Shown: positions 30,098-60,342, numbered from the stretch's first letter. The stretch: 64,000 bases of DNA from Nitrosomonadales bacterium (GCA_016214695.1 JACRNY010000005.1:80372-144371); one strand, 5' to 3'. The notes: a model not told the origin generated them from the letters alone. A program made the numbers and translations.

Positions 30098-30112
30098 GCG
30101 GAGGGACCCCGG

Positions 30113-32939: not shown

Positions 32940-32959
32940 CCCCGGAAACGAGCGCGACC

Positions 32960-33631
32960 ATGAAATTCTCGTATGCACCCATCCGCCCCATCGCCGGCTA
33001 CAGCCCCTGGGCAGCCGACACCGACTTCATGGAGATCCACGAGGCCGTCAGGGAAAACACCATGGTGGACATCTATCGCCTGCACGAACTCTATTCATTG
33101 GTTCGGCAGCTGGGCAAACTTCCGGAGGGCGATATCCTGGAAGTGGGCGTCTGGCGCGGAGGATCCGGCGCATTGCTGGCCCGCACTGCAGCACTTGCCG
33201 GTTTGTCGAGCAGGGTCTTCCTGGCCGACACTTTCCGGGGAGTCGTCAAGGCGGGGAGCCGGGACTCGAAATATACGGGCGGCGAGCATGCCGACACCAG
33301 CCTCGACATCGTCGAGAACCTGCTCGGGGAAAAGTTGAAACTGGAGAATTTCTCGATACTGCAGGGCGTCTTCCCCGAACAGACCGGCGCAGAGATCGCC
33401 GGGCGCTCCTTCCGTCTCTGCCATATCGATGTGGACGTCTACGAATCGGCCAGGGATGTGAACGAATGGGTATGGCCCCGCCTGGTGCCGGGCGGCATGG
33501 TGGTCTACGACGACTACGGCTTCGAACCCTGCGTCGGCGTCACGCGCTATGTCAATGAACAGCTCGCTCTTGAAGACCGCCTCATCCTGCACAACCTGAA
33601 CGGGCATGCGCTTGTGATCAAACTGTATTGA
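32960..33631 (+). CDS. TylF/MycF-family O-methyltransferase
   Basis: LEVGVWRGGS, HIDVDVYES and GGMVVYDDY motifs. Confidence 0.88.
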   Translation: MKFSYAPIRPIAGYSPWAADTDFMEIHEAVRENTMVDIYRLHELYSLVRQLGKLPEGDILEVGVWRGGSGALLARTAALAGLSSRVFLADTFRGVVKAGSRDSKYTGGEHADTSLDIVENLLGEKLKLENFSILQGVFPEQTGAEIAGRSFRLCHIDVDVYESARDVNEWVWPRLVPGGMVVYDDYGFEPCVGVTRYVNEQLALEDRLILHNLNGHALVIKLY

Positions 33632-33644
33632 GCGACCGGCGCAC

Positions 33645-34586: not shown

Positions 34587-34684
34587 GAGATCGCTGATTC
34601 CATGCAAGCCAATGCCGAATCTGTCACCATAACCGGCGCAACCGCACGATCCACGTTCACACCTTACAGAACAGCCACTTTCAA

Positions 34685-35587
34685 ATGATCCATCTACCCC
34701 GCAGTTTCTACAAGTCAGGCCATGCCCCCTATTACATCGTGGCACTGGACTACATCCAGCAGTCGGCCGGCATCCGTGCACTGCATTATCTGTGTCATGC
34801 GCTGAACGAGAGCGGCGCAGAAGCCTATCTGACTTGCCAGGTGACTGCGCCGCACCTGCGCACCCCGGTGCTGGACGGGAATATTCTGCAACGGCACCAT
34901 CTGGCGGGCAGAAAACCGATCGTGATCTATCCCGAGATCGTGTCGGGCGATCCGATGGGGGCTGGAGGACTGGTCGTGCGTTGGCTGCTCAATCAACCGG
35001 GACATATCGCGGGCGATCTTTCATTCCCGGACAGCGACCTGATCTTCGCTTATAGCCCGATGTACCTCCCGTCCGGGATGCAGGGCAGGATCTTGCATGT
35101 GCCGACATGCGATCTGGCCTTGTTCAACAATGACGACAATCCGCATGACGCTGCGCGCGACCAGGTTTGTTTTTATGCCCACAAGTATCTTGTCAATGGC
35201 GGAACACTCACCCGGCACGCAAACGACGCCGTCAGCCTGTGCAAGGACCGTAAGCTGACACATGCGGAAATCGCCGCCGTGCTGCGCCGTTCCAGACTGC
35301 TCTACGTCTACGAGCCGACCGCGCTGATCACGGAAGCTTTGCTCTGCGGCTGTGCGGTGGCGATCGTCGAAACGGATTACTGGCGGGACAACGTGGGAAG
35401 TTTCTCCTGCCCGGTGGAAGACGGCATGACCATGGATCTCGGCCCCGATGCGATAGCTTGTGCACAGAAGAATGCCCGCAACTTCCGCACGAAATACGAG
35501 AACAGCGTCATGCGCGAGGCCTGGCTGCAACTGGACCGGTTCGTCAATTACACGCAAGCCGTCTTCAAGGAACGCACAGGCCGCTGA
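34685..35587 (+). CDS. Putative glycosyltransferase-like protein (WavQ-like)
   Basis: YIVALDY..SAGIRALHYLCHALN, VIYPE and VVRWLLN pattern; GT-B-like C-terminal EALLCGC. The family call is from recollection, not a search. Confidence 0.45.
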   Translation: MIHLPRSFYKSGHAPYYIVALDYIQQSAGIRALHYLCHALNESGAEAYLTCQVTAPHLRTPVLDGNILQRHHLAGRKPIVIYPEIVSGDPMGAGGLVVRWLLNQPGHIAGDLSFPDSDLIFAYSPMYLPSGMQGRILHVPTCDLALFNNDDNPHDAARDQVCFYAHKYLVNGGTLTRHANDAVSLCKDRKLTHAEIAAVLRRSRLLYVYEPTALITEALLCGCAVAIVETDYWRDNVGSFSCPVEDGMTMDLGPDAIACAQKNARNFRTKYENSVMREAWLQLDRFVNYTQAVFKERTGR

Positions 35588-35668
35588 TCCGGGGATAACG
35601 GGGTGATGCGACACGCACCGGCCGGGGCGACCAGATCTCCGTCCTTGATCTGCAACGCACTCACAAGA

Positions 35669-38254
35669 TCATTGCCCGTGACTCTCGCACCATACCCGCC
35701 ACATATCTGTCAGCGCCGCAGCGAAATGGTTCGCAAAGCGCTTTCCGTCCATGATCGGCGATCTCTCCAATCGCTGGCGCAGACCGCTGCGCAATGTCGC
35801 CAAACCTTGCCTGTCGGCCGCATACGAAACAGCCCACGCCACGTATTCTTCCTGGCTGTTGGCGACCCATTCCGGCAACCCCGCATTGCTCAGAAAACCC
35901 GCCCCCTGCCTGAACAGGAATGACTCGCCGCTCAGATTCAGCACCGGCACACCCATCCACAGGCTCTCCACCGTGGTAGTGCCGCCGGGATAGGGGAATG
36001 GATCGAGGGCGATATCGACCCGGTGGTAGGCCTCAAAATACTTCGCTCGCGATTCCGCGCCTTCAAGAATCAAACGCTCCGCCGGAATGCCGTGCACAGC
36101 AAAACGATCCATCGTACGCAGCCGAACCGAGTCCTCACCAAGCTGCCTGGACTTGAGGAACAGACGACTGTCCGGCACTGCCGTCAGCACCCGCGACCAT
36201 AATGCAACGACGTCGTCGTTCATCTTGGCCAGATTGTTGAAACAAGCGAAAGTGACATGACCGTTGGCGAGCGCGGGGAGCGGCGAGACCTCCACCCCGA
36301 CATCGGGTGGTGTGAAACATAGCCGCGTCTCCGGCAGCCGCCAGATCTTTTCCGTGAAATTGCGCTCTTCCGATTCCGGCAACGTGACCGGATCGGCGAT
36401 GAGATAGTCTACCGCGGCGACGCCGGTGGTGGCGAAGTAACCCAGCCATGCCACTTGTACCGGAGCAGGCTTCCATGCGAACACCGGCAGACGGTTGTAA
36501 CGCGAGTGGCCGGAAAGGTCGATCAGCACATGGACGCCATCGCCATGCATCAGGCGTGCGGCGGCTTCATCGCTCAGGCCGACCAGCGGCTTCCATGCGG
36601 AGAAATACGGTTTGATGCGTGCCGTGAGCTCATCCGTCCATGGATCTGTCGGATAGGCGATCAACTCGAACGCTGTGCGGTCGAGATGCCTCAGCAGGTT
36701 CTCCAGAAAATAGCCGACCGGATGGTTCCTGAAGTCACCCGATACGAATCCGATGCGCAGACGCGCGGGCTGCTTCACGCATGACCACTGCATAAAACGC
36801 GAGGGGACTTCGCCCGCCACTTTCCGGCCATATTCGCACGCTTCGGCAAAAGCTGCCGCGGGAGCGACGGCGGGGTTGTAATTCAACAGGAACAGCAGAT
36901 TGCTGTGCGCCTTGTGATAATCCGGCTTGAGTCGCAGCGCCTGCCGGTAGCAGGCCTCGGCTTGCTCCAGGGCACCCAACTCCTGCAGCAGGATGCCGAG
37001 ATTGTTGTGCGCTTCGGCCAGATCCGGCTTCAGTTCCAGCGCCTTCCGGTAACTGAGCTCCGCCTCGGCCAGCCGCCCCAGTTCCTTGAGCGTGTTGCCC
37101 AGATTGCTGTGGGCTTCGGTGTAATCCGGCTTGAGTTCCAGCGCACGCCGCAGGATCGTTTCAGCCTCAGCGGGCAAACCCTGATCATTGAGCACAGCCC
37201 CCAGATTGCAGCAGGCCTGGACATAGGCGGGCTTGATATGCAGTGCATTGCGGTAACTATCTGCGGCTTCCGCCGGACGCCCCTGCTCCCTCAGGGTATT
37301 ACCGAGGTTATAGTGCGCCTCGGCCAGATCCGGTTTGATCCTGAGCGCCCGGCGATGGCAGGCTTCCGCCTCTTGCAGTCGCCCCATATCCTGAAGCATC
37401 GTACCCAGGTTGCAGTATGCATCGGCATAATCCGGCTTGATCTTCAACGCGCGCCGGTAACTGGCTTCGGCTTCATCCAGTCGTCCCATATCCTGCAAGG
37501 CAACGCCCAGATTGCTGTGTGCATCCGCTTCGTTCGGCGACAGTGCCGCTGCCCGTTGCAGTGGAAGCAGCGACTCTGCATTCCTTCCCATCTGTTTCAA
37601 CACCGTCCCCAGCGCTTTCCAGCCGAATCCGTGCTGGGGGAAGTGCTCCGTCATCGACCGTGCCAGAGTTTCCGCTTCTGCCAATCGCCCGGAATTGAAA
37701 AGCGCCACCAGTGCATCGGTCTCCCGGGCACCGGGACTGTTGCCCTTGTGCGCGTGCGTCCTGGCTTTTGCATTCTTCCTGATGCTTTGCGCGTCTGCCG
37801 ACGGAGAGGGCGATTGCCGGGATCCTGGATCTGGCGGCCTGGCAGGCTGAGTGGTCGCTCCCAAACGCGCAGCCAAGGCCTCGATTCCCGCCCCCTGCAA
37901 GCCCTGTCGCCGGGCAAGCGCAAGTACCTCCTGCGCGGCTTTGACCTGACCGGCCTGGAATAAACAATCGATATAACTCAGCCAGTATTGTCCGTTTGCC
38001 GGGTCGGCATCCAGGGCGGCGACAAGATGTGACAGTCCGCTCGCCGGCTGATTCTGCTGTGAATACAGCACCCCCAGGTTGTGGTTGGCCTTCGGCTGAT
38101 GCGGCTCGATCTGCAAGATGGCCAGGTAGCGCTTCTCGGCTTCCTGCAAGTCGCCCGACTGATGCAGTGCCGCAGCCTCGATCAATGCCTGTTCTGTCGT
38201 TTGCGGCTTGGGGCCCAGCAAGGGCTCATCAAGATTCATTTGCCTGCCACTCAT
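35669..38254 (-). CDS. TPR-repeat O-GlcNAc-transferase/SPINDLY-like protein (GT41)
   Basis: Tandem TPRs (AHSNLG, AHYNLG, AHNNLG) followed by RIGFVSGDFRNHPVGYF, DLSGH, FNNLAK and LDPFPYPGGTTTVESLWMGVPV. Confidence 0.88.
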   Translation of the reverse strand: MSGRQMNLDEPLLGPKPQTTEQALIEAAALHQSGDLQEAEKRYLAILQIEPHQPKANHNLGVLYSQQNQPASGLSHLVAALDADPANGQYWLSYIDCLFQAGQVKAAQEVLALARRQGLQGAGIEALAARLGATTQPARPPDPGSRQSPSPSADAQSIRKNAKARTHAHKGNSPGARETDALVALFNSGRLAEAETLARSMTEHFPQHGFGWKALGTVLKQMGRNAESLLPLQRAAALSPNEADAHSNLGVALQDMGRLDEAEASYRRALKIKPDYADAYCNLGTMLQDMGRLQEAEACHRRALRIKPDLAEAHYNLGNTLREQGRPAEAADSYRNALHIKPAYVQACCNLGAVLNDQGLPAEAETILRRALELKPDYTEAHSNLGNTLKELGRLAEAELSYRKALELKPDLAEAHNNLGILLQELGALEQAEACYRQALRLKPDYHKAHSNLLFLLNYNPAVAPAAAFAEACEYGRKVAGEVPSRFMQWSCVKQPARLRIGFVSGDFRNHPVGYFLENLLRHLDRTAFELIAYPTDPWTDELTARIKPYFSAWKPLVGLSDEAAARLMHGDGVHVLIDLSGHSRYNRLPVFAWKPAPVQVAWLGYFATTGVAAVDYLIADPVTLPESEERNFTEKIWRLPETRLCFTPPDVGVEVSPLPALANGHVTFACFNNLAKMNDDVVALWSRVLTAVPDSRLFLKSRQLGEDSVRLRTMDRFAVHGIPAERLILEGAESRAKYFEAYHRVDIALDPFPYPGGTTTVESLWMGVPVLNLSGESFLFRQGAGFLSNAGLPEWVANSQEEYVAWAVSYAADRQGLATLRSGLRQRLERSPIMDGKRFANHFAAALTDMWRVWCESHGQ

Positions 38255-49234: not shown

Positions 49235-49380
49235 GGTCACCTTTAGAAAATCCATTTTTCTGGATGAAACACTAGGAGCCGCGCAGCGAATGACGAGACA
49301 TACCAAATGGGTAGGCGAGGAATGAGCGAGCACGCGACAACGTGGTTCGCCAGAACAATGGATTTAATAAAGGTGTTACC
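49235..49380. mobile_element. ~146-bp MITE-like element between fliQ and fliR
   Basis: Imperfect ~35-bp TIRs: ggtcacctttagaaaatccatttttctgg versus reverse complement ggtaacacctttattaaatccattgttctgg. Confidence 0.7.
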
Positions 49381-50169
49381 GTGATCAGCTTCACCAGCGC
49401 GCAACTTCTAGCCTGGTTCGCCGCCTTCATCTTCCCGCTCGCCCGCATCCTCGCGCTCATCGCCAGCGCCCCGGTACTCGGCAACCGGCAGATCCCCGTC
49501 CGCATCAAGGTCGGACTGGCAGTGGCCATCACCATGATCGTCGCACCCACGCTGGACATCCCCACCGATCTCGACCCCGCATCCGCGCAAGGCGTGCTTG
49601 TCCTGATACAGCAGATCGTCGCCGGGCTGACCATGGGTTTCGCCATGCGTCTCGTCTTCACCGCCGTGGAGATGGCGGGCGACCTCGCCGGCATGCAGAT
49701 GGGCCTGGGTTTCGCCACATTCTACGACCCGCAGAACGCCACCTACCTGCCCGTGATCGCACAGTTCCTCGGCATCATCGCCGCGCTCACCTTCCTCGCC
49801 ATGGATGGTCATCTGTACATGCTGGCGGCGCTGGTGGAAAGCTTCCATTCCTTCCCCATCGCCGTGGGCACGCCCTCTGCCGGAGCATTCCGTACCCTGG
49901 TGGAATGGGGCGGCGCCATGTTCAGCCACGCGCTGCAACTCTCGCTCCCCCTGATCGGCGCGCTGCTCATCACCAATCTGGCGCTCGGCATCCTCACCCG
50001 CAGCGCACCGCAGCTCAACATCTTCGCGGTCGGCTTCCCGGTCACACTGGCGGTCGGCTTCATCGCACTGATGCTGGTGCTGCCTTTCCTCGCACCATTG
50101 CTGGGAACCTTCGTACGTGAAGGCCTGGATGTGATTGCGCGGGTGATGCAGCAGGCGGGGGGGCGTTAA
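49381..50169 (+). CDS. fliR: Export gate FliR
   Basis: GTG start; AGMQMGLGFA, DGHL and RSAPQLNIFAVGFP motifs. Confidence 0.95.
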   Translation: MISFTSAQLLAWFAAFIFPLARILALIASAPVLGNRQIPVRIKVGLAVAITMIVAPTLDIPTDLDPASAQGVLVLIQQIVAGLTMGFAMRLVFTAVEMAGDLAGMQMGLGFATFYDPQNATYLPVIAQFLGIIAALTFLAMDGHLYMLAALVESFHSFPIAVGTPSAGAFRTLVEWGGAMFSHALQLSLPLIGALLITNLALGILTRSAPQLNIFAVGFPVTLAVGFIALMLVLPFLAPLLGTFVREGLDVIARVMQQAGGR

Positions 50170-50228
50170 CGTGCAGCTAAGGGCGTCCCGGCGTCCTAAG
50201 GGAGCGAACTTGAGTGCAAGGATTAGGC
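50164..50228 (-). other. Terminal degenerate attC (65 bp)
   Basis: 78-bp family with an internal ~14-nt deletion and a mutated R'' (GCCTAAT); R' GTTAACG overlaps the fliR stop. Confidence 0.75.
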
Positions 50229-50516
50229 GTATTTGAACTCGATCTTATGGATCTTTTTTAGATCCACAGTCTGCTTGGCTTGCCATAGATCGTAATTGTC
50301 TTGCATCATCAACCAGCTTTCGGGGGTGCGTCCCAATGCCTTGGAAAGACGAAGAGCCATCTCAGGGCTCAAACCACTGGTTTCGTTCAAAACGCGATTA
50401 AGAGTCGAGGCGGCAACGCCCAATTTGAGGGCGAGCTCCCTGCAGCTGATTTCGTTCGGCGCAAGATAAACCTCTTGAATAAATGCGCCGGGGTGTGGCG
50501 GATTGTGCATAGCCAT
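50223..50516 (-). CDS. higA: HigA-family antitoxin (HTH_3)
   Basis: MAMHNPPHPGAFIQE, SPEMALRLSKALG and PESWLMMQDNYDL motifs. Confidence 0.92.
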   Translation of the reverse strand: MAMHNPPHPGAFIQEVYLAPNEISCRELALKLGVAASTLNRVLNETSGLSPEMALRLSKALGRTPESWLMMQDNYDLWQAKQTVDLKKIHKIEFKYA

Positions 50517-50590
50517 TAGTGATAATCCTCGTAATCTAAAACAAATGCGTTGCCGTTCTCAAATTCAAACGTGACGCGCCAATTACCATT
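50516..50590 (-). pseudogene. higB: 3' remnant of a HigB toxin gene
   Basis: Minus frame reads NGNWRVTFEFENGNAFVLDYEDYH*, and the TAA overlaps the higA ATG. The 5' part is replaced by the transposase element. Confidence 0.85.
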
Positions 50591-50599
50591 CGAAAAACC

Positions 50600-51409
50600 G
50601 GGGACAGACCACGGTTTCTCTCCTACTCCAAATCCAGTTCCCCCGATTCCGGCATTCCCGATTTTCGCGGACGCCCGGATTGACCCGGTGCAGCGCGCCT
50701 GCCGATCGTTTCGCTCACCGCTGATGCAAAGCGCTCACTCCCCAGCGCAAAGTTGCCATTAGTCGCCCGACGAATCTCATCCACCAGCCCTGGCTCCAAC
50801 TCATAACGAAAGAGATCGCGGTAAGCCGCCTGACGGGACACCGCGTCGCTACCCAGCGAGGTGTATAGCAGATGCGGTTGCACCAAGGCATCCATCTCCC
50901 CCTGCGCATTGGCCCGGTAGCTGGACCAGCGATACTCCGCTGGATGCGTCACCATATTCGCACGCACGGGGTTCAACTCGATGTAACGCTGGCATCCCAA
51001 AAGGTAATCTTCCTCTTGCACCGGGCACGACCGAAAGCGTCCTTCCCACAAAGTGCCGCTGCGCCGATAGACGCGATTCACATACTGCACATAACGCTGC
51101 CCCAGCGACTTCATCAAAGCACCGCCCGCATCAGCGCGCTCTGAAGAAATCAGCAGGTGAACATGATTCGTCATCAGCACATAAGCATGAATCCGGCAAC
51201 TGGACTTGCTGGCGTACTCGGAAAGCCAATCCAGATAGCGGCGATAGTCCTCATCGGCGAAAAAACAGGGCTGGCGATTATTGCCACGCTGGATAAGGTG
51301 GATAGGTACATTCGGCAATGCGATGCGGGCGCGGCGCGGCATGGCGAACTCCGACTGCGGAAGGACGAAGGGCAGTCTATCAAAGATCAGGAAACCGTGG
51401 TCTGTCCCC
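50600..51409. mobile_element. REP-flanked Y1 transposase element (RAYT/REPtron-like)
   Basis: Perfect 19-bp inverted ends ggggacagaccacggtttc (50600-50618) and gaaaccgtggtctgtcccc (51391-51409). Confidence 0.8.
50623..51342 (-). CDS. HUH Y1 transposase (REP-associated tyrosine transposase family)
   Basis: HLIQRGNNRQ, MTNHVHL (HUH), LWEGRF, YIELNPVRA and WSSY motifs. Confidence 0.92.
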   Translation of the reverse strand: MPRRARIALPNVPIHLIQRGNNRQPCFFADEDYRRYLDWLSEYASKSSCRIHAYVLMTNHVHLLISSERADAGGALMKSLGQRYVQYVNRVYRRSGTLWEGRFRSCPVQEEDYLLGCQRYIELNPVRANMVTHPAEYRWSSYRANAQGEMDALVQPHLLYTSLGSDAVSRQAAYRDLFRYELEPGLVDEIRRATNGNFALGSERFASAVSETIGRRAAPGQSGRPRKSGMPESGELDLE

Positions 51410-51482
51410 TATTATTAGTAAAAGAATAGAGCAAGGGCGAAACAAATTATGGCGCCTATGTGCATGGCTTGGTGCTCTCTAA
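51410..51482 (-). pseudogene. Truncated cassette: 5' end only (MHIGAIICFALALFFY*), no attC
   Basis: Begins at R' GTTAGAG; ATG at 51465; sequence breaks at the REP end. Confidence 0.6.
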
Positions 51483-51551
51483 CGTGAAGGTAAGGGGCTG
51501 CGCTTTAGCGCAGTCCCAGCCCGAAGGGCGAACTTGACCGCAGGGTTAGGG
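51477..51551 (-). other. attC (75 bp)
   Basis: CCCTAAC...GGTCAAG...CTTAC...GTTAGAG; related to the 78-bp family. Confidence 0.88.
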
Positions 51552-52094
51552 GTTTTCTTTGTATTGAGCAACAAGTTTTTCATATGCACTTCCGGTTGCA
51601 TCAAAACCAGCCTTTGAGCGCGAGCTGACTGTGAAAATGAGAAAGAATTCGCCTTCTTCACCATATGTCACACGTTCCCAGTTACCCGAACCTTTCGGAA
51701 AGAAAGTAAACGATTTGAATTTCTTTCCATCTGCCGTGACAAGTGGATTTACTTCTTGAATCTCAATACCGGGTGATTCCTTTAAAAAAATGTTTTTATC
51801 CCTCGCAATAAGCATTTCGAGTGTTTTGATCTCAGGGTCGCGAGGCTTGAAGATGGCCTTTGCGTACATAACGGTCTCGGCATTTGCAAAAGTAGCATTG
51901 TCGGGTGCCAATGCATTAACTTTGAAGTTGAAGCACTGTTCACGGTCTTGGTGCCACCCCGAAATCATAGCCAACTTGGGCCACCAGTAAAAATGCAAAC
52001 CCTGTTCACCAGGGACTGCAATTTTTTCTATCTCGGCTTGCGCAGTTGGCACAAGACTCAAAGCTGCAATGATGAGTAGTGAAAGAGTACGCAT
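51546..52094 (-). CDS. Cassette gene: secreted hypothetical protein (182 aa)
   Basis: True start ATG 52094; signal peptide MRTLSLLIIAALSLVPTAQA; stop lies in R''. Confidence 0.8.
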   Translation of the reverse strand: MRTLSLLIIAALSLVPTAQAEIEKIAVPGEQGLHFYWWPKLAMISGWHQDREQCFNFKVNALAPDNATFANAETVMYAKAIFKPRDPEIKTLEMLIARDKNIFLKESPGIEIQEVNPLVTADGKKFKSFTFFPKGSGNWERVTYGEEGEFFLIFTVSSRSKAGFDATGSAYEKLVAQYKENP

Positions 52095-52099
52095 ATAAC

Positions 52100-52168
52100 T
52101 CCTAACGTTCGAGGTAAGGGGCAATTTGCGGCCTGCCGCAAATTGTCCCATTGACTGATGGGTTAGGT
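52100..52168 (-). other. attC (69 bp)
   Basis: ACCTAAC...GTCAAT..caatttgcggc/gccgcaaattg..CTTAC...GTTAGGA. Confidence 0.88.
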
Positions 52169-52522
52169 GTCGCCTTTGCGAAGGGCAGCATTGAGTACCT
52201 CCTGGATGACTGCGGCACCGACAAGACGAGAGCCCTCTTGAACAGTGAAGCGAAAGCCGGGGAAGAGGCGACCGGCTTGGTATTCGGGGACCTGCAGCCA
52301 CACATTCGCAAGGACTGTCTCTCCCGGCGCCGCGGAGTCCTGACCGATGTACTCATGTGCAGCGTCATTCAGTGTGCCGGGCAGCCCGAAGTCGTGGCTC
52401 GGCCTGTAGCCAGACTGCGCCGGATGGGAGCGACCGCCGCGCTCTGTAGCCAAGAACTCAATCCTGGCCACGAGATCCGGCGGACGGACAGTTATGCGGG
52501 GAATTCTGGGCTCGGGCGACAT
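52163..52522 (-). CDS. Cassette gene: stand-alone EF-Tu domain III-like beta-barrel protein
   Basis: ARIEFLATERGGRSHPAQSGYRP...PGET...GFRFTVQEGSRLVGAAVIQEV resembles the EF-Tu C-terminal domain. Confidence 0.65.
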   Translation of the reverse strand: MSPEPRIPRITVRPPDLVARIEFLATERGGRSHPAQSGYRPSHDFGLPGTLNDAAHEYIGQDSAAPGETVLANVWLQVPEYQAGRLFPGFRFTVQEGSRLVGAAVIQEVLNAALRKGDT

Positions 52523-52570
52523 TGGAAGCTTTCGAGTGGGCAGGCGATGCTGCGCAACGGTTGCTGCGAC

Positions 52571-52648
52571 ACCTAACGTGCAGCTAAGGGGCGCGCCGAA
52601 GGCGCGTCCCAGCGACCAAAGGGAGCGAACTTGAGCGTAAGGTTAGGG
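52571..52648 (-). other. attC (78-bp signature family)
   Basis: CCCTAAC-CTTAC-GCTCAAG...CTTAG-CTGCAC-GTTAGGT. Confidence 0.92.
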
Positions 52649-53005
52649 GCCATCTACTGCCCCGACATCCATGCCATCATAGTCAAGAACTCCAAAGTGT
52701 TCGGCTACTTTATAGAGCTCCTGATTTCTCTGATTCAATGAATCAACAGAATGGGTTTCAATGCGATCTGCGCGTAGAAAAATTGTCTCTTGGTCTTCGT
52801 CTTCTGGAGCTGGCTCCAAAAAACCTATTACTTCATACCCGTTGTTTTCAAGATGGTGACCAATCTGAGTTAGTTTTTCTTTGTCACTATCCACAAAGAA
52901 AAATGACCACCTGCACGAATCGTCAATATCAAAGGGAGCTTTCCCCTCCTTATAAAGTTGCCGGGTGTGATCAAAGAACTCTTGTAATGTTTCGACTGTA
53001 ATCAT
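52643..53005 (-). CDS. Cassette gene: acidic RraB-like (DUF695-associated) protein
   Basis: WSFFF..LENNGYEV and terminal LDYDGMDVG pattern resemble RraB-like proteins. Confidence 0.55.
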   Translation of the reverse strand: MITVETLQEFFDHTRQLYKEGKAPFDIDDSCRWSFFFVDSDKEKLTQIGHHLENNGYEVIGFLEPAPEDEDQETIFLRADRIETHSVDSLNQRNQELYKVAEHFGVLDYDGMDVGAVDGP

Positions 53006-53011
53006 TGTGGC

Positions 53012-53070
53012 CTCTAACGTAAAGGTAAGGGGCGCGCGTTAGCGCGTCCCGCTTGACCGACGGGTTAGGC
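53012..53070 (-). other. attC (59 bp)
   Basis: GCCTAAC-CCGTC-GGTCAAG...CTTAC-CTTTAC-GTTAGAG. Confidence 0.9.
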
Positions 53071-53398
53071 TTGGGTCAAAAAGCAGAAACGCACGCCATG
53101 AACCCCAGCCCAGCAACACGGCGAAAATTAGTGAATAAACTTCCTGCCCAGAAACCATGCCGTAATCGAGAGACGCGGCGAGTGCCAAGACGGGAACAGC
53201 CCAACAAAGCAATTTCATTGCAACGTGCCCCCAAGACGGAAGGCGCTTAACTCGCGCTGCAACCAAGAGCACGCCGATTGCGGCAAACAATGCCGACACA
53301 ACAAAACCAACAATATCACCCTCGAACATACTGGGCGCAAACGCAGCGATCACAGCGCAATTAACAAGCAACGCGATAAGCCAGCCGAGTGTGCGCAT
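53039..53398 (-). CDS. Cassette gene: 4-TM membrane protein
   Basis: Four hydrophobic segments; the C-terminus extends into the attC. Confidence 0.75.
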   Translation of the reverse strand: MRTLGWLIALLVNCAVIAAFAPSMFEGDIVGFVVSALFAAIGVLLVAARVKRLPSWGHVAMKLLCWAVPVLALAASLDYGMVSGQEVYSLIFAVLLGWGSWRAFLLFDPSLTRRSSGTR

Positions 53399-53403
53399 AA
53401 GAA

Positions 53404-53485
53404 GCCTAACGTTTCGAGTTAAGCGACATCACGCATGACTGCTCGTTGCGCTCTGCCGCACTGTTTGCGTGATGTCTGCTTGAAC
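53404..53485 (-). other. Truncated attC (lacks R''): 75-bp attC-only unit
   Basis: 53411-53485 is identical to 55280-55354 and 55856-55930; it starts at the L'' box GTTCAAG. Confidence 0.85.
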
Positions 53486-53556
53486 GTGCAGCTAAGGGGC
53501 GCGCCGAAGGCGCGTCCCAGCGACCAAAGGGAGCGAGCTTGAGCGTAGGGTTAGCG
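53479..53556 (-). other. attC (78-bp family)
   Basis: CGCTAAC...GTTCAAG (non-canonical R' contributed by the downstream remnant). Confidence 0.9.
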
Positions 53557-53566
53557 GACATGTGCA

Positions 53567-53866
53567 TCATCGAGAATCAAAGAGGAAGACACCGAGAACA
53601 ATGATGCACAAAATCGCAAGCACGACACCAAGCCCTCGAACAACCCAGCCCGTGATAACCGCATACCTTGGGGTGTTCGTTCCATCGGGGTTGTTGAACC
53701 CCCCAGGCAAATCGTCTTCCAGCGTAGCCACCCAACCATTGATCAAAATTGCCTCCGCAACAATTAAGAATGCCCACCAAAACTTCAAACCTGAGATTGA
53801 AGAGAGGCCTGCTGCAAGCAACGTTATAACCAGCAACCAGATCGATGGCAAGAGCACTCGTTTCAT
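53567..53866 (-). CDS. Cassette gene: small 3-TM membrane protein
   Basis: Hydrophobic 99-aa ORF filling the cassette. Confidence 0.75.
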   Translation of the reverse strand: MKRVLLPSIWLLVITLLAAGLSSISGLKFWWAFLIVAEAILINGWVATLEDDLPGGFNNPDGTNTPRYAVITGWVVRGLGVVLAILCIIVLGVFLFDSR

Positions 53867-53869
53867 GTT

Positions 53870-53947
53870 CGCTAACGTGCAGCTAAGGGGCGCGCCGAAG
53901 GCGCGTCCCAGCGACCAAAGTGAGCGAACTTGAGCGTAGGGTTATGC
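53870..53947 (-). other. attC (78-bp family)
   Basis: GCATAAC...GTTAGCG. Confidence 0.92.
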
Positions 53948-54304
53948 CTAGTGTGAGACATATGCTTCTGTTCTGAGAAACCTGCAAAATTCATCTCGAA
54001 GGTCATCGTCTTCTTTGCCAAATTCCTTTTTGTGCTCCGCTAAATAAGCGAGATAAAGGTGGCCCTTGATTATCTTTAACTCGTTTTCGATGAGGAAGTC
54101 TCTACCTTTCACTCCATTATTAACCTGGTTGCTCAGCTCCTTTAGCGCTTCGTTCGCGGCCTTTTTAGTGAATGCTGATTCTGGAATATACCAAGCATCT
54201 TCTTCTGTTTTTGGTTTAGGCATGGGCTCGCAATAGTTTTTAGCGATTGCGAAATTACTTACAAGGAGCAGCGCAAGCCAACAGCAAATAACTCGTGACC
54301 TCAT
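53948..54304 (-). CDS. Cassette gene: secreted hypothetical protein
   Basis: Signal-peptide-like MRSRVICCWLALLLVSNFAIA; fills the cassette. Confidence 0.78.
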   Translation of the reverse strand: MRSRVICCWLALLLVSNFAIAKNYCEPMPKPKTEEDAWYIPESAFTKKAANEALKELSNQVNNGVKGRDFLIENELKIIKGHLYLAYLAEHKKEFGKEDDDLRDEFCRFLRTEAYVSH

Positions 54305-54835
54305 TTAATTTCTCCAAGAGGCATAACGTGGAGCTAAGGGGCGCGCCGAAGGCGCGTCCCAGCGACCGGAGGGAGCGAACTTGAGCGCAGGGTTAGGTGG
54401 TTCTCCAGCATTGATAGTTCTTTGCACCTCAGCCTCGTCGGATATATAGAAAATGGGTTCCATTTTTTTATGTTCTATTACCTCGGTTGCCCCATTGATA
54501 GTTACATTCACATAGCCGGGATGAGCTCTGGCGGGCCAATCATGTTGTGCCCATTCCCAGTATTGCGGATGATTCGTACTTCTGCCCGTTGCCTCGAATA
54601 GAGTTCTTCCGTGCTTACCTTTAACAATTAGAACCGTATCATCTACATCAAAAAGAGGGCTGTAATATCGTAGTTCAATAGTTACGTCCTCTCTCTGATA
54701 TCCGGTAGGTAGCGTTGGATACCAAACCGGTAATCTTGATGCTGGTGATAGCGTGAAGTCGGACTCCAATAACCCTCGTATCGGAGAACAGGCTGAGAAC
54801 AATACCAAGAATAGAAGGCCGGTGATAATCCTCAT
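54305..54835 (-). CDS. Cassette gene: putative lipoprotein that reads through its attC
   Basis: Lipobox LFSAC; the last ~31 codons come from the attC and the next cassette's leader. Confidence 0.75.
   Translation of the reverse strand: MRIITGLLFLVLFSACSPIRGLLESDFTLSPASRLPVWYPTLPTGYQREDVTIELRYYSPLFDVDDTVLIVKGKHGRTLFEATGRSTNHPQYWEWAQHDWPARAHPGYVNVTINGATEVIEHKKMEPIFYISDEAEVQRTINAGEPPNPALKFAPSGRWDAPSARPLAPRYASWRN
54321..54398 (-). other. attC (78-bp family)
   Basis: ACCTAAC...GTTATGC. Confidence 0.92.
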
Positions 54836-54841
54836 AACTTC

Positions 54842-54901
54842 ACCTAACGTCTGACATGAGGGGCCGCCGATAGGCGGTCCCTCTCGATGGATGGGTTGGG
54901 C
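54842..54901 (-). other. attC (60 bp, distinct type)
   Basis: GCCCAAC-CCATC-CATCGAG-AGGGACCGCC...GGCGGCCCCT-CATGTCAGAC-GTTAGGT. Confidence 0.88.
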
Positions 54902-54904
54902 ATC

Positions 54905-55267
54905 TTAGCCAAGACTGAGGCCCTTTTCTTTGGCTAGGCTGCGTGGGGATTGGCCAAATTCGGACACGATATCGGTTCGTGCCCCGGCCGCCAAAATGGC
55001 TTGTATGGCCTTTATGTTTTCTTGACGAATGGCAACGTGAAGAGGGGTTTCACCCATGTCGCCAACAGCATTGACGTCTGCGCCATGTTGAATAAGCAGA
55101 AGCGCTCCGTCAGTGTCCTTGCGCCAAAGAAGCACATGAAGCGGTGTATCGCCATCAACGTCAGTGCTACCAATATCAACCGCTTGATTCCCCAAATGCT
55201 CAGGAAACAGACAGTCAGAGGTCGATTGCAAAACCTCGTTTAGTGATCGGGCTGGCGTTTTACTCAC
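54905..55267 (-). CDS. Cassette gene: ankyrin-repeat protein
   Basis: GDTPLH, GETPLH and GQSP ankyrin motifs. Confidence 0.88.
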   Translation of the reverse strand: MSKTPARSLNEVLQSTSDCLFPEHLGNQAVDIGSTDVDGDTPLHVLLWRKDTDGALLLIQHGADVNAVGDMGETPLHVAIRQENIKAIQAILAAGARTDIVSEFGQSPRSLAKEKGLSLG

Positions 55268-55272
55268 GAGAT

Positions 55273-55366
55273 GCCCAACGTTTCGAGTTAAGCGACATCA
55301 CGCATGACTGCTCGTTGCGCTCTGCCGCACTGTTTGCGTGATGTCTGCTTGAACGAGGGGTTCGAC
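55273..55366 (-). other. attC (94 bp, aadA-like L boxes GTTCAAGC/GCTTAAC)
   Basis: GTCGAAC-CCCTC-GTTCAAGC..gacatcacgca/tgcgtgatgtc..GCTTAAC-TCGAAAC-GTTGGGC. Confidence 0.9.
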
Positions 55367-55482
55367 GTGAGAGATTGCGGCCTGGCTGTGATAAATGAAG
55401 CAGCGCGTTCATCTCTAAAAGCGCGGACATTTGATGTACCGCTTCTTCTCATTCATCCTTCGCCGCGATCTATCGCGTTGAA
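55279..55482 (-). mobile_element. 204-bp cassette with no conventional gene (only a 54-aa attC-overlapping ORF, 55288-55452)
   Basis: Bounded by crossover points GTTCAAC and GTTGGGC. Confidence 0.8.
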
Positions 55483-55554
55483 CGTGCAGCTAAGGGGCGC
55501 GCCGCAGGCGCGTCCCAGCGACCGCAGGGAGCGAACTTGAGCGTAGGGTTAGAG
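55477..55554 (-). other. attC (78-bp family)
   Basis: CTCTAAC...GTTCAAC. Confidence 0.92.
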
Positions 55555-55845
55555 TACATCAAGCTTTGACAAATGTTCTTTGTACCTAGCGGCATGTTCC
55601 AATAGCTCCATGTTCTCTGCTGCGAATAGAAGTTCTTGCCAAAAAAGATGCTCTTCTGCGTACCCACTATGACTTTCACCAATGCCTTCTAATGAATCTA
55701 AAGCAAGCTCAAATTCGGTATGGTGAAGATACTCGATGTATTGCTCTTCCCACTCCGCAGGTGTGCTGAGCACGACCGGCAGAAAATATCTTGCTGCTGC
55801 AAGATGACGCAACGAAGTTTTGAGTTCATCGGGGTATGGTCTCAT
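55549..55845 (-). CDS. Cassette gene: small acidic helical hypothetical protein (immunity-protein-like)
   Basis: 98 aa, Glu-rich (EYLHHTEFELALDSLEGIG); stop lies in R''. Confidence 0.7.
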   Translation of the reverse strand: MRPYPDELKTSLRHLAAARYFLPVVLSTPAEWEEQYIEYLHHTEFELALDSLEGIGESHSGYAEEHLFWQELLFAAENMELLEHAARYKEHLSKLDVL

Positions 55846-55848
55846 AAA

Positions 55849-55942
55849 CTCTAACGTTTCGAGTTAAGCGACATCACGCATGACTGCTCGTTGCGCTCTG
55901 CCGCACTGTTTGCGTGATGTCTGCTTGAACGAGGGGTTCGAC
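55849..55942 (-). other. attC (94 bp) of the first cassette
   Basis: Same sequence as 55273-55366 apart from the cassette-dependent R' (GTTAGAG). Confidence 0.9.
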
Positions 55943-56017
55943 GTGAGAGATTGCGGCCTGGCTGTGATAAATGAAGCAGCGCGTTCATCTCTATTCGCCG
56001 CGATCTATCGCGTTGAA
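55855..56017 (-). mobile_element. First cassette (163 bp): copy of 55279-55482 with a 41-nt deletion
   Basis: Identical except for loss of the segment at 55418-55458. Confidence 0.85.
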
Positions 56018-56040
56018 CGTAAAGTAGACACCCTAAAAAA
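56012..56040 (-). other. Putative attI site
   Basis: Last GTT crossover (G/TTCAAC) before intI, preceded by a 5-nt spacer and degenerate L box TGTCTAC; no attC palindrome upstream. Confidence 0.55.
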
Positions 56041-56116
56041 TGCCGAGAAAGGCACCTTCGAGACGTACAATCTGGCATCAACTCTGCAATGCCTTGTTTT
56101 TGTTGAAGGAGAAATT

Positions 56117-57112
56117 ATGGTAACCCCTAAAATTTCCGATAAAAGCACCACGGCGCAACCTCCCAAATTATTGGATCAAGTCCGCGATAAGTTGCGGGTG
56201 AAGCACTACAGCATTCGCACCGAACAAGCCTATACGGGCTGGATTAAACGCTATATCTATTTTCACGGCAAGCGCCACCCCAAAGACATGGGCGCGGCAG
56301 AGATAGAGGCTTTTCTGACAAATCTGGCTGTCGAGGGCAATGTTTCCGCGTCCACACAAAACCTGGCCAAGAGTTCATTGTTATTCCTCTATCGCGAGGT
56401 TCTTGAAATTGAATTGCCCTGGCTGGATAACGTGACACAGGCCAAAGTACCAAAGCGCTTGCCGGTTGTCCTGACGGTATCGGAAGTTCAGAGCGTGTTG
56501 TCGCAATTGAATGGCACGCATTTGTTGATCGCATCGTTACTGTACGGCGGCGGGATGCGTTTGATGGAGGCGGTGCGCTTGCGCGTCAAGGATGTGGATT
56601 TCGAGCGGCGCGAGATTCTGGTACGCGAGGGCAAGGGGTTCAAGGACAGGGTGACGATGTTGCCGGAAACGATCATCGATTCGCTCAAGGCGCACATGGC
56701 AAGGGTCAAAGCATTGCATGCGGAAGATCTGGCGCAGGGCTATGGTGAGGTGTACATGCCATTCGCGCTGGACAAGAAATATCCAACAGCCGGAAGAGAC
56801 TGGAGCTGGCAGTATGTTTTCCCGTCAAAGAATCTGTCGGTCGATCCGCGTTCGGGCAAAACGCGCCGCCATCATGTGGATGAAAAAGGTGTACAGCGTG
56901 CGGTGAAGCAGGCCGTGCGCGATGCAGAGCTCACCAAACCCGCCACGCCGCACACGCTGCGCCATTCCTTTGCCACGCATCTGTTGCAATCGGGCTACGA
57001 CATCCGCACCGTGCAGGAGCTGCTCGGCCATTCCGATGTTTCCACCACCATGATCTACACGCATGTGCTGAACAAGGGCGGCAGAGGTGTGGTGAGTCCG
57101 CTGGACAGGTGA
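56117..57112 (+). CDS. intI: Integron integrase (331 aa)
   Basis: RBS GAAGGAGA; [32 protein letters not shown] and TTMIYTH motifs; integron-specific insert [29 protein letters not shown]. Confidence 0.97.
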
Positions 57113-57194: not shown

Positions 57195-58403
57195 TTACAG
57201 GTAGTCGAACAGCGACATCTGTGACACTTTCGCGAACGACTGCTGTGCTGCCTGCAGCGTCATCTGCTCCACGGCGAGTTCGCTGATGGCTTTGTTGTAG
57301 TCGGTGTCCTGGACCTTGGACAGGGTCTGCTTGAGTTGCAGCCCGACTTCTTCGCCGGTGGCCTGCAGGGCATCCAGTTCGCGCAGTCGCGCTCCCATGG
57401 TGGCGCGGACGTTCAGGACATTGCCGAGCCCCTGATCGATCGCGCCGAAGGCGTCGTTCAGTCCCTGACGGTAGGCTGCCGAGTTCATGGCGTTGGTCGA
57501 GGGGATGGAGGCATTCAGCGTCGCGATGAGGTCGCTGAGGGTGGTGAACAGGCTCTGGTTGGTGCTGGGGGTGATATCGAAGGTGTCGCCGGCGACGGGG
57601 GCGCCCCTGATCTCGACCTGCACGCCGTTGAAGCCGATCGTCTGTCCGCTCACGTAGGTGCCGGAGCTTACCGGCACGGGCGGCCCGGCGGTCACATCGT
57701 TGATGTCGTAGGTGGTGGCACTGGTGAAGACGATCTGGTAGCTGTTGTTGTTGTACAGCGCCGGATCGATCACCGCGCCCTGGGTGATGGATCCGGTGCC
57801 GGTGTTGCCTGCGCCGGGTGCGGCCTGGAACAGGCCATTGCCGTTGCGGATGCGCATGAAGATGTCGGCACCGGAGTCGGTGGTGGTGATCTGGCGCGAT
57901 GCGGCAGCCTGTACTTTGCGCTGCACGTCGTCGCCCTGGTAGGCGACGCCGCCGGCGGTATCCACGAACGGTTGCACAGTGCCCTGCGACCCGGAGAACA
58001 GGAAGTTACCTGCACCGTCGCTGCTGTTGGCCAACCCCAGCAATTCCTGCAGGCGGCCCTGCAGTTCGGTCGCCAGTGATTTGCGGCTGGTGTCGTTGAG
58101 GATGCCATTGCCGGCATCCACCGCGATGACGCGCACATCCTGCAGCAGTGACGTCACGCTTTGCATGACACCTTCCGCCAGGCCCAGCGTGTTCATCGCC
58201 GCTGTGCGATTGACGCCGTATTGGGTGTTCGCCGAATCCGACTGGGTGAGTTCCACCGCGCGTGCCGCGCCGGCAGGATCATCGGCGGGATTGAGGATGC
58301 GGCGCCCGGTCGCGATCTGCTGCTGCGTCTTGGCAACCTGCGACTGCAGGTTGTTCATGGTGGTGATGTTCTCGTTATAGAGTGTGCTGGTACTGATGCG
58401 CAT
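57195..58403 (-). CDS. flgL: Hook-filament junction protein FlgL
   Basis: MRISTSTLY..QIATGRRILNPADDPAGA, FLFSGSQ and DTDYNKAISEL motifs. Confidence 0.93.
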   Translation of the reverse strand: MRISTSTLYNENITTMNNLQSQVAKTQQQIATGRRILNPADDPAGAARAVELTQSDSANTQYGVNRTAAMNTLGLAEGVMQSVTSLLQDVRVIAVDAGNGILNDTSRKSLATELQGRLQELLGLANSSDGAGNFLFSGSQGTVQPFVDTAGGVAYQGDDVQRKVQAAASRQITTTDSGADIFMRIRNGNGLFQAAPGAGNTGTGSITQGAVIDPALYNNNSYQIVFTSATTYDINDVTAGPPVPVSSGTYVSGQTIGFNGVQVEIRGAPVAGDTFDITPSTNQSLFTTLSDLIATLNASIPSTNAMNSAAYRQGLNDAFGAIDQGLGNVLNVRATMGARLRELDALQATGEEVGLQLKQTLSKVQDTDYNKAISELAVEQMTLQAAQQSFAKVSQMSLFDYL

Positions 58404-58410
58404 GATAGTC

Positions 58411-60342
58411 CTAGCCTCCCAGTTGCAATAAGGTGTCGAACATGTTGTTGGCGATCGACATCGCCTTTGCCGCCGCCTGATAGGCCTGCTGGTAGCGCAG
58501 CAGGTTCGCCGCTTCCTCGTCCAGGTTGACACCGGATACCGCCTGCTGCGACTTGGTCACCTGGTCGAGCATGCTGGTCTGCGCCCGGCTGGTGACTTCG
58601 AGTTCGCGCGTCTGGGTGCCGACCTGGCTGATCAGTTGCCCATAGGCGCCCTGATAGCTGGTGGTGCCGTTCGCCATGGTATTGGCGGTCTGCAGCAGCG
58701 CCAGTTTGAGCACGTTGCTGCCGTCGGTGGTGGCATTGGTGTTGGCGGTGACGGTGAACACGTCGCCGGCAGCCGGCGTCCCGCTGATCTGCGTGGTCCA
58801 GCCGTTGATGGTGATCGCGCTGCCCGAGGTATATGCCTGCGGCCCCGCCGGTGCACCGGTGCCGGTGGCGGTGTAGGTGGTGGGCGGATTGTTGAAAGTG
58901 ATGGTGATCGGCTGCTGCAGGTTGGCATCCAGCGGCAGACCGGGCACCACCGTCGCTGCCGCGATGAGGCCTGTGCCCAAATTGCTTATCTGTGCATTGG
59001 AACGCACGGGCGAAGCGGCCGCGATCCTGGCGGGGTCGGTGATGCCGAGCGCGATGGCGCTGGCGCCGCTCACCGTGGGGCGAACCAGGAAGGAGTCGCC
59101 CGCCGCATTCGCCACCATTCCCGGCGTCAGTTGCAGGGTGATGCCGGTGCCAGTGAGCGTCTGTCCGGCAGTAAGCTGCGCCGTGGTGAATGTCTGCAGC
59201 AGCGTGTTGTCGGAGGTGTCGTAGACGTTGTAGTTGGTGCCGTCGAACTGCACGTTGTAATCCTTGCCGGTCAGCGCCGCTGTGCTGCTGATGCTGGCCG
59301 CCAGCGAGCTGTCGCCGACGTTGCTGGTGGAGGCCGTCACGCGCGGGGTCGCGGAAGAGAAGAACGTCCCGCCCAAGGCCCCCTTGAGATCCATGCCCTG
59401 CTGGTGTTGCTGGTTGAAGGTGTCGGCCAGGCCGAGCGCGATGCGGCCCAGCGCATTGACGGCGGGGTCGAGTTCGTTCTGGCGGAAGTCGAGATAGCCG
59501 CCGAGATTACCGCCCTGCAAAGCGTCCTGGCGGATGCGGCTGACATTGCCATTGTTCAGGTAGGCGACCTCCAGCGAGGTCGGATCGGTGGTGGAAGCGA
59601 CCGCCTGCAGGGTGGAGACACGGTTGCCGACCACCAGCGACTGGCCGCTGCCGATGAACACGTCCACCGAGCCGTCCGACTGCTTCACTGTGGAAACGCG
59701 GATCTCCTGGCTCAACTGGTTGATCAGCTGGTCGCGCTGGTCGAGCAGGTCGTTGGGCGGTTGTCCCGGCGTCTTGGACTGGAGCAGCACGATGTTATCG
59801 TTCAGCGCGGCGATCTGTTTCGCGTAGCTGTTGACCGAGGTCACGCTGTTCTGGATCTGGCCGTTGAGTCCGTCGCGGATCTGGTTCATGCGCAGGTCCA
59901 GCGCCTGCAGGCGGTTCACCAGCGTCTGGGCGCTGCCGATCATGCCTTGTCGCGCGGAAACGGATTCGGGCGCGTTGGCCACGCCGTTCACTGCGTTGAA
60001 GAAGTCCTGCAGGGTCGGGGTGAGGCCGCCGCTGGAATCGCCGAACAGGTTGCTCAGCTGCTGCGACAGTTCGTAGCGGGCGTTCAGGTTGGATGACTGG
60101 GTCTGCGCTTCCAGCACCTGCGCGCCAAGGAACTGGTCGTAGCGGCGCAACACGGTGGTGACATCGGCCCCCTGCCCCAGATAGCCGGCGCCGGTATTCT
60201 GCGGCTGCTCGGCGGTCTGGATGATCTCCTGGCGCGAATAGCCGGGGGTGTTCACGTTGGCGATGTTGTGCGAGGTCGCGGCGATGCCCGCCTGAGCCGC
60301 CCGCAATGCACTTACCCCGATACCGTATATTCCTGTGCCCAT
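58411..60342 (-). CDS. flgK: Hook-associated protein FlgK
   Basis: SHNIANVNTPGYSRQ, PNDLLDQRDQL and SGVNLDEEAANLLRYQQAYQA motifs. Confidence 0.95.
   Translation of the reverse strand: MGTGIYGIGVSALRAAQAGIAATSHNIANVNTPGYSRQEIIQTAEQPQNTGAGYLGQGADVTTVLRRYDQFLGAQVLEAQTQSSNLNARYELSQQLSNLFGDSSGGLTPTLQDFFNAVNGVANAPESVSARQGMIGSAQTLVNRLQALDLRMNQIRDGLNGQIQNSVTSVNSYAKQIAALNDNIVLLQSKTPGQPPNDLLDQRDQLINQLSQEIRVSTVKQSDGSVDVFIGSGQSLVVGNRVSTLQAVASTTDPTSLEVAYLNNGNVSRIRQDALQGGNLGGYLDFRQNELDPAVNALGRIALGLADTFNQQHQQGMDLKGALGGTFFSSATPRVTASTSNVGDSSLAASISSTAALTGKDYNVQFDGTNYNVYDTSDNTLLQTFTTAQLTAGQTLTGTGITLQLTPGMVANAAGDSFLVRPTVSGASAIALGITDPARIAAASPVRSNAQISNLGTGLIAAATVVPGLPLDANLQQPITITFNNPPTTYTATGTGAPAGPQAYTSGSAITINGWTTQISGTPAAGDVFTVTANTNATTDGSNVLKLALLQTANTMANGTTSYQGAYGQLISQVGTQTRELEVTSRAQTSMLDQVTKSQQAVSGVNLDEEAANLLRYQQAYQAAAKAMSIANNMFDTLLQLGG

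Follow-up and report, generated by a model that had tools for sequence, protein, structure and literature searches.

The closest described counterparts of the element analysed here are the Vibrio cholerae superintegron, class 1 integrons and the integrons of Xanthomonas. The element itself, in our reading a complete integron, spans positions 50164-57112 of a 64,000-nt stretch of DNA from a Nitrosomonadales bacterium (GCA_016214695.1 JACRNY010000005.1:80372-144371). We call this stretch the window, and all coordinates count along its whole length. As in the V. cholerae superintegron, the integrase gene intI diverges from cassettes that share one orientation, the location is chromosomal and between core genes, and a dominant type of near-identical attC site is also found in related species. 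A toxin-antitoxin (TA) cassette is present, most cassette genes lack known function, and IntI matches the V. cholerae integrase VchIntIA (2A3V) with an E value of 1.5e-92. Unlike the superintegron, the element has 13 cassettes rather than about 180, roughly half of its attC sites are heterogeneous, its TA module is inactivated, no LexA box was found, and the same platform lies at differing loci across family members. Class 1 integrons provide the closest well-studied integrase, IntI1. The integrase of the window is 56-57% identical to IntI1 over 97% of its length, with the same catalytic residues and a gap-free additional domain, and the layout of intI, attI and cassettes is common to both. 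However, the element is not plasmid-borne, it lacks the Tn402 tni module, the 3' conserved segment and resistance cassettes, its attC sites are largely of one lineage-specific type, and its IntI scores under the cutoff of the IntI1-type equivalog (402 versus 435 bits). The integron of Xanthomonas occupies one fixed site next to ilvD. By contrast, the present platform is found in at least five chromosomal contexts within one family, and intI of the window is intact. The likeness lies in a lineage-associated chromosomal integron with decay in relatives, described for Xanthomonas integrons and for clusters of attC sites without an integron integrase (CALINs) (PMC4889954; bioRxiv 10.1101/2025.06.18.660453) and seen here at L010 and L029 (L-numbers denote the relatives' loci that were compared).

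We conclude, with a probability of about 0.9, that 50164-57112 is a complete chromosomal integron lying in the convergent gap between a fliLMNOPQR-type operon and flgL. It is a well-formed fresh example of a well-known element type and not a new type. A complete integron has been defined as an integron integrase together with at least one attC site (Cury et al. 2016, PMC4889954), and here IntI with its additional domain, the attC sites and attI are all present. An earlier note on this DNA had likewise placed a complete integron in the chromosome within a flagellar cluster, and all its parts lie where that note had put them. The note also called the integron sedentary, which is only partly supported. 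By published criteria, a sedentary integron is found in 100% of the genomes of a species or has over 19 attC sites (Cury et al. 2016, PMC4889954); with 13, the present array stays below that number. One further species representative (L005) has the same junctions, relatives as close or closer are empty or different at this position, and the platform sits at other loci in other Gallionellaceae. Traits of the sedentary type are nevertheless present, namely attC homogeneity, a lineage-specific attC type and a TA cassette. The element does not belong to mobile classes 1-5, since its IntI is 56% identical to IntI1, its flanks are fliR and flgL, and its best plasmid match is 61.5% identical. A literature search found no papers on integrons in Gallionellaceae or at a flagellar junction; homologues are already automatically annotated as 'integron integrase' in public records.

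The window derives from a metagenome-assembled contig from groundwater, and only metagenome-assembled genomes (MAGs) exist for the species. The host is an uncultured groundwater iron-oxidiser of the Gallionellaceae, Sideroxyarcus-like. The top IntI matches, 84-96% identical, are from MAGs of Sideroxyarcus, Gallionella, Gallionellales and Nitrosomonadales, and the relatives of FliR are Gallionellaceae MAGs. The locus represents a clean, fully resolved small environmental chromosomal integron in iron-oxidising Betaproteobacteria. It has no clinical or resistance relevance, and its proximity to flagellar genes is so far without functional meaning.

Integrase, attI and attC sites

The integron platform and its flanks are organised as follows:

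49342-50169, plus strand: fliR, left flank (TIGR01400, 237 bits)
56016-56116: attI and attI-intI promoter region, with the predicted crossover GTT on the minus strand at 56018-56016
56117-57112, plus strand: intI, intact integron integrase of 331 aa
57140-57179: two-way intrinsic terminator (A8, 15-bp stem, T-run)
57195-58421, minus strand: flgL, right flank (TIGR02550, 331 bits)

The earlier note saw the element as bounded by the fliR stop and by a terminator shared with flgL, and the junction sequences agree with this. The fliR stop TAA (50167-50169) falls within the R' box of the last attC (GTTAACG, 50164-50170), the plus strand reading ...GGG CGT TAA C. At the other end, 27 bp separate the intI stop from the terminator. 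The G+C content of the array is 45-58%, versus 57-65% in the flanks.

That intI is intact, as had been noted from the sequence, is borne out by its family assignment and by its residues. The protein matches the integron integrase family TIGR02249 of NCBIfam with 494 bits (cutoff 265) and contains the Pfam domains Phage_int_SAM_4 and Phage_integrase. Aligning it with IntI1 and three orthologues shows residues R148, K173, H279, R282, H305 and Y314 to be conserved, and the integron-specific additional domain (residues 215-253) aligns with IntI1 free of gaps. The true start is the ATG at 56117, preceded by GGAG at a distance of eight bases and conserved across orthologues in the aligned upstream regions; the open reading frame (ORF) that begins at 55880 is a stop-free run-in. 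Compared with four orthologues, the ratio of nonsynonymous to synonymous substitutions (dN/dS) is 0.04-0.09 at dS of 0.5-1.3. Thus, intI is under strong purifying selection. An IntI search returned at least 8,000 proteins, all with E <= 1e-30, and the best 120 of these are 84-100% identical. A search of plasmids yielded only distant relatives, at most 61.5% identical.

The attI site could be placed by aligning the 150 bp upstream of intI from the window and from L005, L003, L004 and L001. From AAC at 56016-56018 to the intI start, 86 of 110 columns are invariant in the five genomes, a conservation far above that of neutral DNA. Beyond AAC the five genomes are unrelated, and the first cassette differs in each. 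Because homology ends abruptly there, we place the predicted attI crossover at 56016-56018, which locates a putative attI of ~100 bp. The site proposed in the earlier note coincides with this break.

Downstream of the attI junction at 56018, the minus strand carries thirteen ACGTT junctions. The G of their R' boxes lies at 55855, 55483, 55279, 54848, 54327, 53876, 53485, 53410, 53018, 52577, 52106, 51483 and 50170. Twelve of them belong to complete attC sites of 59-94 nt, spaced 75-1313 bp apart, inside the 4-kb limit set for integron arrays, and built of R'' (YYTAAC), a 5-nt spacer, L'' (NNTCAAG), a variable stem-loop, L' (CTTANC), a spacer and R' (GTT...). The count of 13 attC sites in the earlier note therefore stands for the junctions, but only 12 sites are complete, the thirteenth being truncated and the terminal one degraded; its figure of about 14 cassette units becomes 13. 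From attI outwards, the units A to L and the terminal site of unit M are:

55849-56017, minus strand: cassette A, 163 nt, no ORF, first in the array; attC 55849-55942
55477-55854, minus strand: cassette B, ORF 55549-55845, 98 aa, no family match; major-type attC 55477-55554
55273-55482, minus strand: cassette C, 204 nt, no ORF; odd-type 94-nt attC 55273-55366
54842-55278, minus strand: cassette D, ORF 54905-55267 with ankyrin repeats (PF00023, PF12796); attC 54842-54901
54321-54847, minus strand: cassette E, ORF 54305-54835 with lipoprotein-like N-terminus; attC 54321-54398
53870-54326, minus strand: cassette F, ORF 53948-54304, signal-peptide-like; major-type attC 53870-53947
53479-53875, minus strand: cassette G, ORF 53567-53866, membrane protein; major-type attC 53479-53556
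53404-53484, minus strand: unit H, 75 nt, no ORF, 3' part of the odd attC type
53012-53409, minus strand: cassette I, ORF 53039-53398, multi-pass membrane protein, no family match; attC 53012-53070
52571-53017, minus strand: cassette J, ORF 52643-53005, RraB family (PF06877, 49 bits); major-type attC 52571-52648
52100-52576, minus strand: cassette K, ORF 52163-52522, weak similarity to EF-Tu domain 3; attC 52100-52168
51477-52105, minus strand: cassette L, ORF 51546-52094, signal-peptide-like N-terminus, no family match; attC 51477-51551
50164-50228, minus strand: terminal attC of cassette M, degraded

RNAalifold recovered only three pairs as a consensus for the attC alignment and was replaced by a structure set by hand and checked by pair counts, from which we built a covariance model using the 12 complete sites of the window. 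In this structure 88% of the helix cells are paired, versus 21-58% when the partners are slid. The L-box pair 15-80 occurs as CG, GC, UA and AU, and its covariation score was unmatched by 500 shuffles. An extrahelical base in L'' is expected of attC sites. Column 17 of L'' (C on the top strand, G on the bottom strand) is accordingly unpaired in 12 of 12 sites. The folds of the bottom strand show the canonical shape, with a fold z-score of -5.5 for the attC of cassette K. Five sites, sharing 83-93% identity over 82 nt, form the major type, which recurs in L005 and L010 at 93-99% identity; the other seven are more diverse. When run over the 64-kb window, the model found nothing beyond the array at E <= 0.01, and up to E = 1 its only further match overlapped attC F on the opposite strand. 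In relatives outside its training set, it likewise detects arrays beside intI. An Rfam scan of 49-58 kb gave only sub-threshold chance matches on the terminator.

Cassette turnover and signs of decay

In established integron biology, IntI recognises attC as a folded single-stranded hairpin of the bottom strand, with paired R and L boxes and the extrahelical L'' base. By the same chemistry, recombination of attC with double-stranded attI would insert a cassette at the first position, and recombination between two attC sites would excise a cassette as a circle. All cassettes face away from intI, and the conserved 100-bp attI-intI region would supply the promoter for their transcription. The sequences themselves show the anatomy, the exact insertion compared with empty sites, purifying selection on intI, the attI breakpoint, cassette turnover between species and the duplication at attI, whereas present-day recombination activity, the cassette promoter and any phenotype are inferences.

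The nearest relative with matching junctions is L005, with an IntI 96% identical to that of the window. It has the same two junctions, a truncated attC at the fliR stop and 89% nucleotide identity through attI, intI and the terminator. Despite this, the two arrays have zero cassettes in common, and only the attC sequences match. Cassette turnover between the two species is complete.

A second sign of movement is found within the array. Cassettes A and C match over 141 + 27 nt at 100% identity, A carrying a 41-nt deletion, and the repeat is present at twice the flanking depth in three independent metagenome runs. Since C retains sequence that is also found in a longer homologue in L003, A is the derived copy. 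The duplicate probably arose by excision of a cassette and its re-insertion at attI.

The evidence has to be weighed against a frozen relic, that is, a once-active integron whose cassettes are now fixed and whose intI is kept by chance or for another role. Several points weigh against a fully functional integron, and most of them would suit such a relic. The terminal attC (50164-50228) is degraded: its R'' reads AAT instead of AAC, the inner stem is short, and its fold is no better than that of shuffled sequences (z-score 0.07), with a covariance model score of 48 bits. The thirteenth site (53404-53484) is a truncated attC, a 3' fragment without R'', and the unit that holds it (H) is unmatched by the covariance model. 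The higBA cassette is broken by a transposase unit and, with only a remnant of higB left, does not qualify as a type II TA system of the HigBA kind. No LexA box (CTGT-N8-ACAG, up to one mismatch) was found near intI, matches across the window being at chance level. Nor is there a consensus sigma-70 promoter in 56016-56400, where only weak hexamers are seen by eye, so that a cassette promoter (Pc) is not recognisable. In addition, we examined k-mer-graph contigs from four metagenome runs that contain the array (X1-X4), all from one groundwater study. The same array is found throughout, and the contigs of the four runs hold no interpretable excision or shuffling joints, the sides of the candidates being at most 31 nt long or lying in repeats. 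The cassette order among near-identical 78-nt attC sites and a 141-nt perfect repeat also rests on metagenome assembly.

Nevertheless, we consider a relic unlikely. A dN/dS of about 0.05 maintained over dS of 0.5-1.3 together with a full catalytic set, the conservation of attI far beyond that of neutral DNA, the wholly different content of L005 behind identical junctions, and a 100%-identical cassette duplicate exactly at attI all argue against a dead element. The earlier note had itself named a relic as the outcome that would overturn its reading; the low dN/dS and the lack of any cassette in common with the closest relative that has the same junctions speak otherwise.

Insertion site and location in relatives

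The fliR-flgL gap holds different things in different Gallionellaceae. In L007, three attC sites follow three extra genes. L010 (10931-20792) has, in opposite orientation, fliR, a GGDEF-EAL gene, an intI of ~55 N-terminal codons and 17 or more plus-strand attC sites. That L010 arose from an L005-like block by simple inversion is not established, the GGDEF-EAL proteins being only 54% identical. L029 (10876-11621) contains a two-attC CALIN between fliR and flgL with higBA as its sole cassette. Elsewhere (L036, L037, L034, L016, L041) the gap is filled by genes for GGDEF, MHYT-PAS-GGDEF-EAL, HD-GYP-type (with hemerythrin) and PAS-MCP proteins. Because many Gallionellaceae hold such cyclic di-GMP and chemotaxis genes there, the gap is a general variable spot and not one reserved for integrons. 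L005 has a gene for a 1075-aa PAS-GGDEF-EAL protein after the intI terminator and before flgL, with the final 76 bp of flgL directly duplicated on either side of it (15778-15853 and 19471-19546).

Conversely, the same attI-intI platform (85-93% IntI identity) is found at other loci, with homology spanning the stretch from the attI crossover to the intI stop. In L003 its neighbour is glmU; in L004, L051 and L052 it adjoins or lies within an operon for an oligopeptide-type ABC transporter; in L053 it borders ndk-rlmN, and in L055 it has another context. The flagellar location is thus lineage-specific, since the platform occupies several unrelated loci in other Gallionellaceae, and it most simply reflects a permissive convergent gap. 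The IntI family is abundant in Gallionellaceae and present at several chromosomal sites, which makes it a possible natural system for the relocation of 'sedentary' integrons and their decay into CALINs. In L051 (6936-11097) the integron lies inside the transporter operon, with 8 bp between the end of intI and the ATPase gene, and attI is adjoined by a ParE/antitoxin cassette. In L004 (783-6030), three identical-length transposase genes of the IS110 family are interleaved with cassettes.

A bolder reading is that the gap is a recurrent docking site to which whole integrons relocate by their own recombination chemistry. The array end is fused to fliR at G|TT, with TT lying within the fliR stop, and ancestral-type ends read ...CATTAAG. 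At least three different junctions or orientations of integron material occur in this gap: that of the window and L005, that of L010 and that of L029. Within the family, the platform also occupies five or more chromosomal positions elsewhere. Such a pattern would fit a circular integron-bearing molecule integrating by recombination of attC with a secondary site. We regard this proposal as distinctly unlikely.

The integron could also have arrived as a passenger of a larger mobile element, such as a genomic island, a transposon or an integrative and conjugative element inserted between fliR and flgL. In favour of this, the gap is variable in the family and filled with unrelated accessory genes in many relatives, a Y1 transposase gene lies within the array, and the same platform is found at other loci in other genomes. 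However, relatives with an empty site define both insertion junctions to the base. In L008, L009, L038 and L043-L045, fliR and flgL are about 75-110 bp apart. An empty site consists of the fliR stop, about 20-45 bp, the same terminator and then flgL. Homology between the window and L008 (FliR 81% identical) extends to 50159 and resumes at 57144. The terminator is kept in L008 and L009, which share its GC-rich stem, and in L005; today it serves both intI and flgL, having been part of the ancestral fliR-flgL gap. The extra DNA relative to these empty sites runs from the last R' to 27 bp past the intI stop, so nothing but the integron, about 6.98 kb, was inserted. Around it there are no tni genes, no conjugation genes and no further integrase genes, and the plasmid relatives of its IntI are distant. 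The earlier note had seen no flanking transposon, and the only transposase-family gene, for a putative REP-associated tyrosine transposase (RAYT, 50623-51342; REP, repetitive extragenic palindromic), lies inside the last cassette in a unit bounded by its own REP arms. A passenger origin is therefore very improbable. The comparison of fliR-flgL junctions across relatives that the note had proposed thus favours its reading and not arrival within a larger element.

An assembly artefact, in which cassettes of different community members were stitched together through shared attC repeats, is hardly credible: the groundwater metagenome does contain many related Gallionellaceae, five attC sites are 83-93% identical over 82 nt beside a 141-nt perfect repeat, and the deepest run has low-depth alternative joints, but in each of the four runs 94-97% of the 31-mers of the integron region are present, all cassette pieces match the depth of the flanking fliR, intI and flgL, repeats occur at about integer multiples of that depth, and independent contigs cross both outer junctions, one running from fliR into three cassettes and another from attI to flgL.

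The earlier note further proposed that surface variation and cassette-borne functions are co-located. A sugar-modification island does exist (23156-38254, 15 kb), encoding a HAD hydrolase, an epimerase, a thiamine pyrophosphate enzyme, NeuB, a sulfotransferase, a GT41-TPR protein and four FkbM/TylF-type methyltransferases. It is, however, ~12 kb from the integron with fliF-fliR between them, and nothing links the two functionally; the proposed co-location is unsupported. Given the several unrelated loci of the platform in other Gallionellaceae, the association looks incidental. Ahead of the island, the gene order is flagellin, fliD, a fliK-like gene and a ycgR-like PilZ gene. The flagellin gene (17581-18297) encodes a short protein of 238 aa with only the N and C helical domains.

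Cassette contents and the disrupted higBA module

Ten of the 13 cassette units contain ORFs, whereas A, C and H do not. The products are mostly small exported or membrane proteins lacking known function, the others being ankyrin, RraB-like and EF-Tu-domain-3-like proteins. The proteins of cassettes B, E, F, G, I and L match no family in Pfam or NCBIfam, and PADLOC applied to the cassette proteins returned only generic ankyrin matches and no known defence system. The same three scans of the cassette proteins revealed no resistance genes, and the earlier note had seen none. Read from the sequence, the ORFs of B, J, K and L and higA end on a TAA inside R''. In cassette E, unlike these, the ORF lacks its own stop: it runs on through its attC, which adds ~30 residues, and terminates 17 nt inside cassette F. 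Translated searches find the peptide encoded by this attC in every related array. In unit H, an internal GTTCAAG is joined to the R' of attC G, which suggests recombination at a secondary GTT within the L'' box.

The ORF-less units (55855-56017, 55279-55482 and 53410-53484) form a family with a homologue in L003 (about 290-640), and they have the 94-nt attC in common. Their shared 5' end, GTTCAACGCGATAGATCGCGGCGAA, holds the palindrome CGCGAT-AG-ATCGCG. The L003 homologue is 89% identical and longer inside; in the stem of its attC, a compensatory change turns A-T into G-C. Cassettes of the A/C type may be regulatory or small RNA cassettes.

Cassette M, at the distal end, contains three further features:

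50223-50516, minus strand: higA antitoxin, intact (TIGR02607, 104 bits, cutoff 47.7)
50516-50590, minus strand: higB toxin remnant, about the last 24 codons (PF05015 positions 68-91 of 91, E 0.0018)
50593-51416, minus strand: REP-RAYT-REP unit with inverted REP arms at 50593-50618 and 51391-51416

This is a higBA addiction module whose toxin gene has been destroyed by the REP-RAYT-REP unit, which sits in place of the 5' part of higB and the preceding attC. The RAYT gene encodes a 239-aa Y1 (HUH) transposase that matches PF01797 above the cutoff (49 bits) and NF047646 below it (68 bits, cutoff 80). The REP arms are 88% complementary, with 19-nt perfect inverted cores. A 'WSV' encoded in the REP arm was considered as part of higB, but its spacing is unlike that of higB in L029, and it was taken as a coincidence. 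HigA of the window is 91% identical to HigA of the L029 higBA cassette, where higB is near full length with a 1-nt frameshift near its 3' end. In both loci, the toxin is disabled and the antitoxin retained. In the higA region 50361-50499, contigs in X3 and X4 differ from the window at 9-11 positions per 140 bp, with identical adjoining sequence; this is either a strain variant or a paralogous higA of another genome.

RAYT/REP systems consist of a single-copy Y1 (HUH) transposase gene between inverted REP sequences, with REP doublets at other places in the genome. The RAYT unit is present at about single-copy depth, and a REP doublet with a 14-nt spacer is found elsewhere in the same metagenomes. 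The same arm-to-arm unit lies at the distal end of the integron beside ndk in L053 (5120-5954), with 80% nucleotide identity and 89.5% amino acid identity of RAYT. As the unit is thus found in arrays of two genomes at different loci, REP-RAYT, a single-stranded-DNA unit, might preferentially target or travel with integron arrays, although we consider this unlikely. In L053, tandem partial copies of the 5' end of the unit follow the REP-RAYT-REP (5980-6435).

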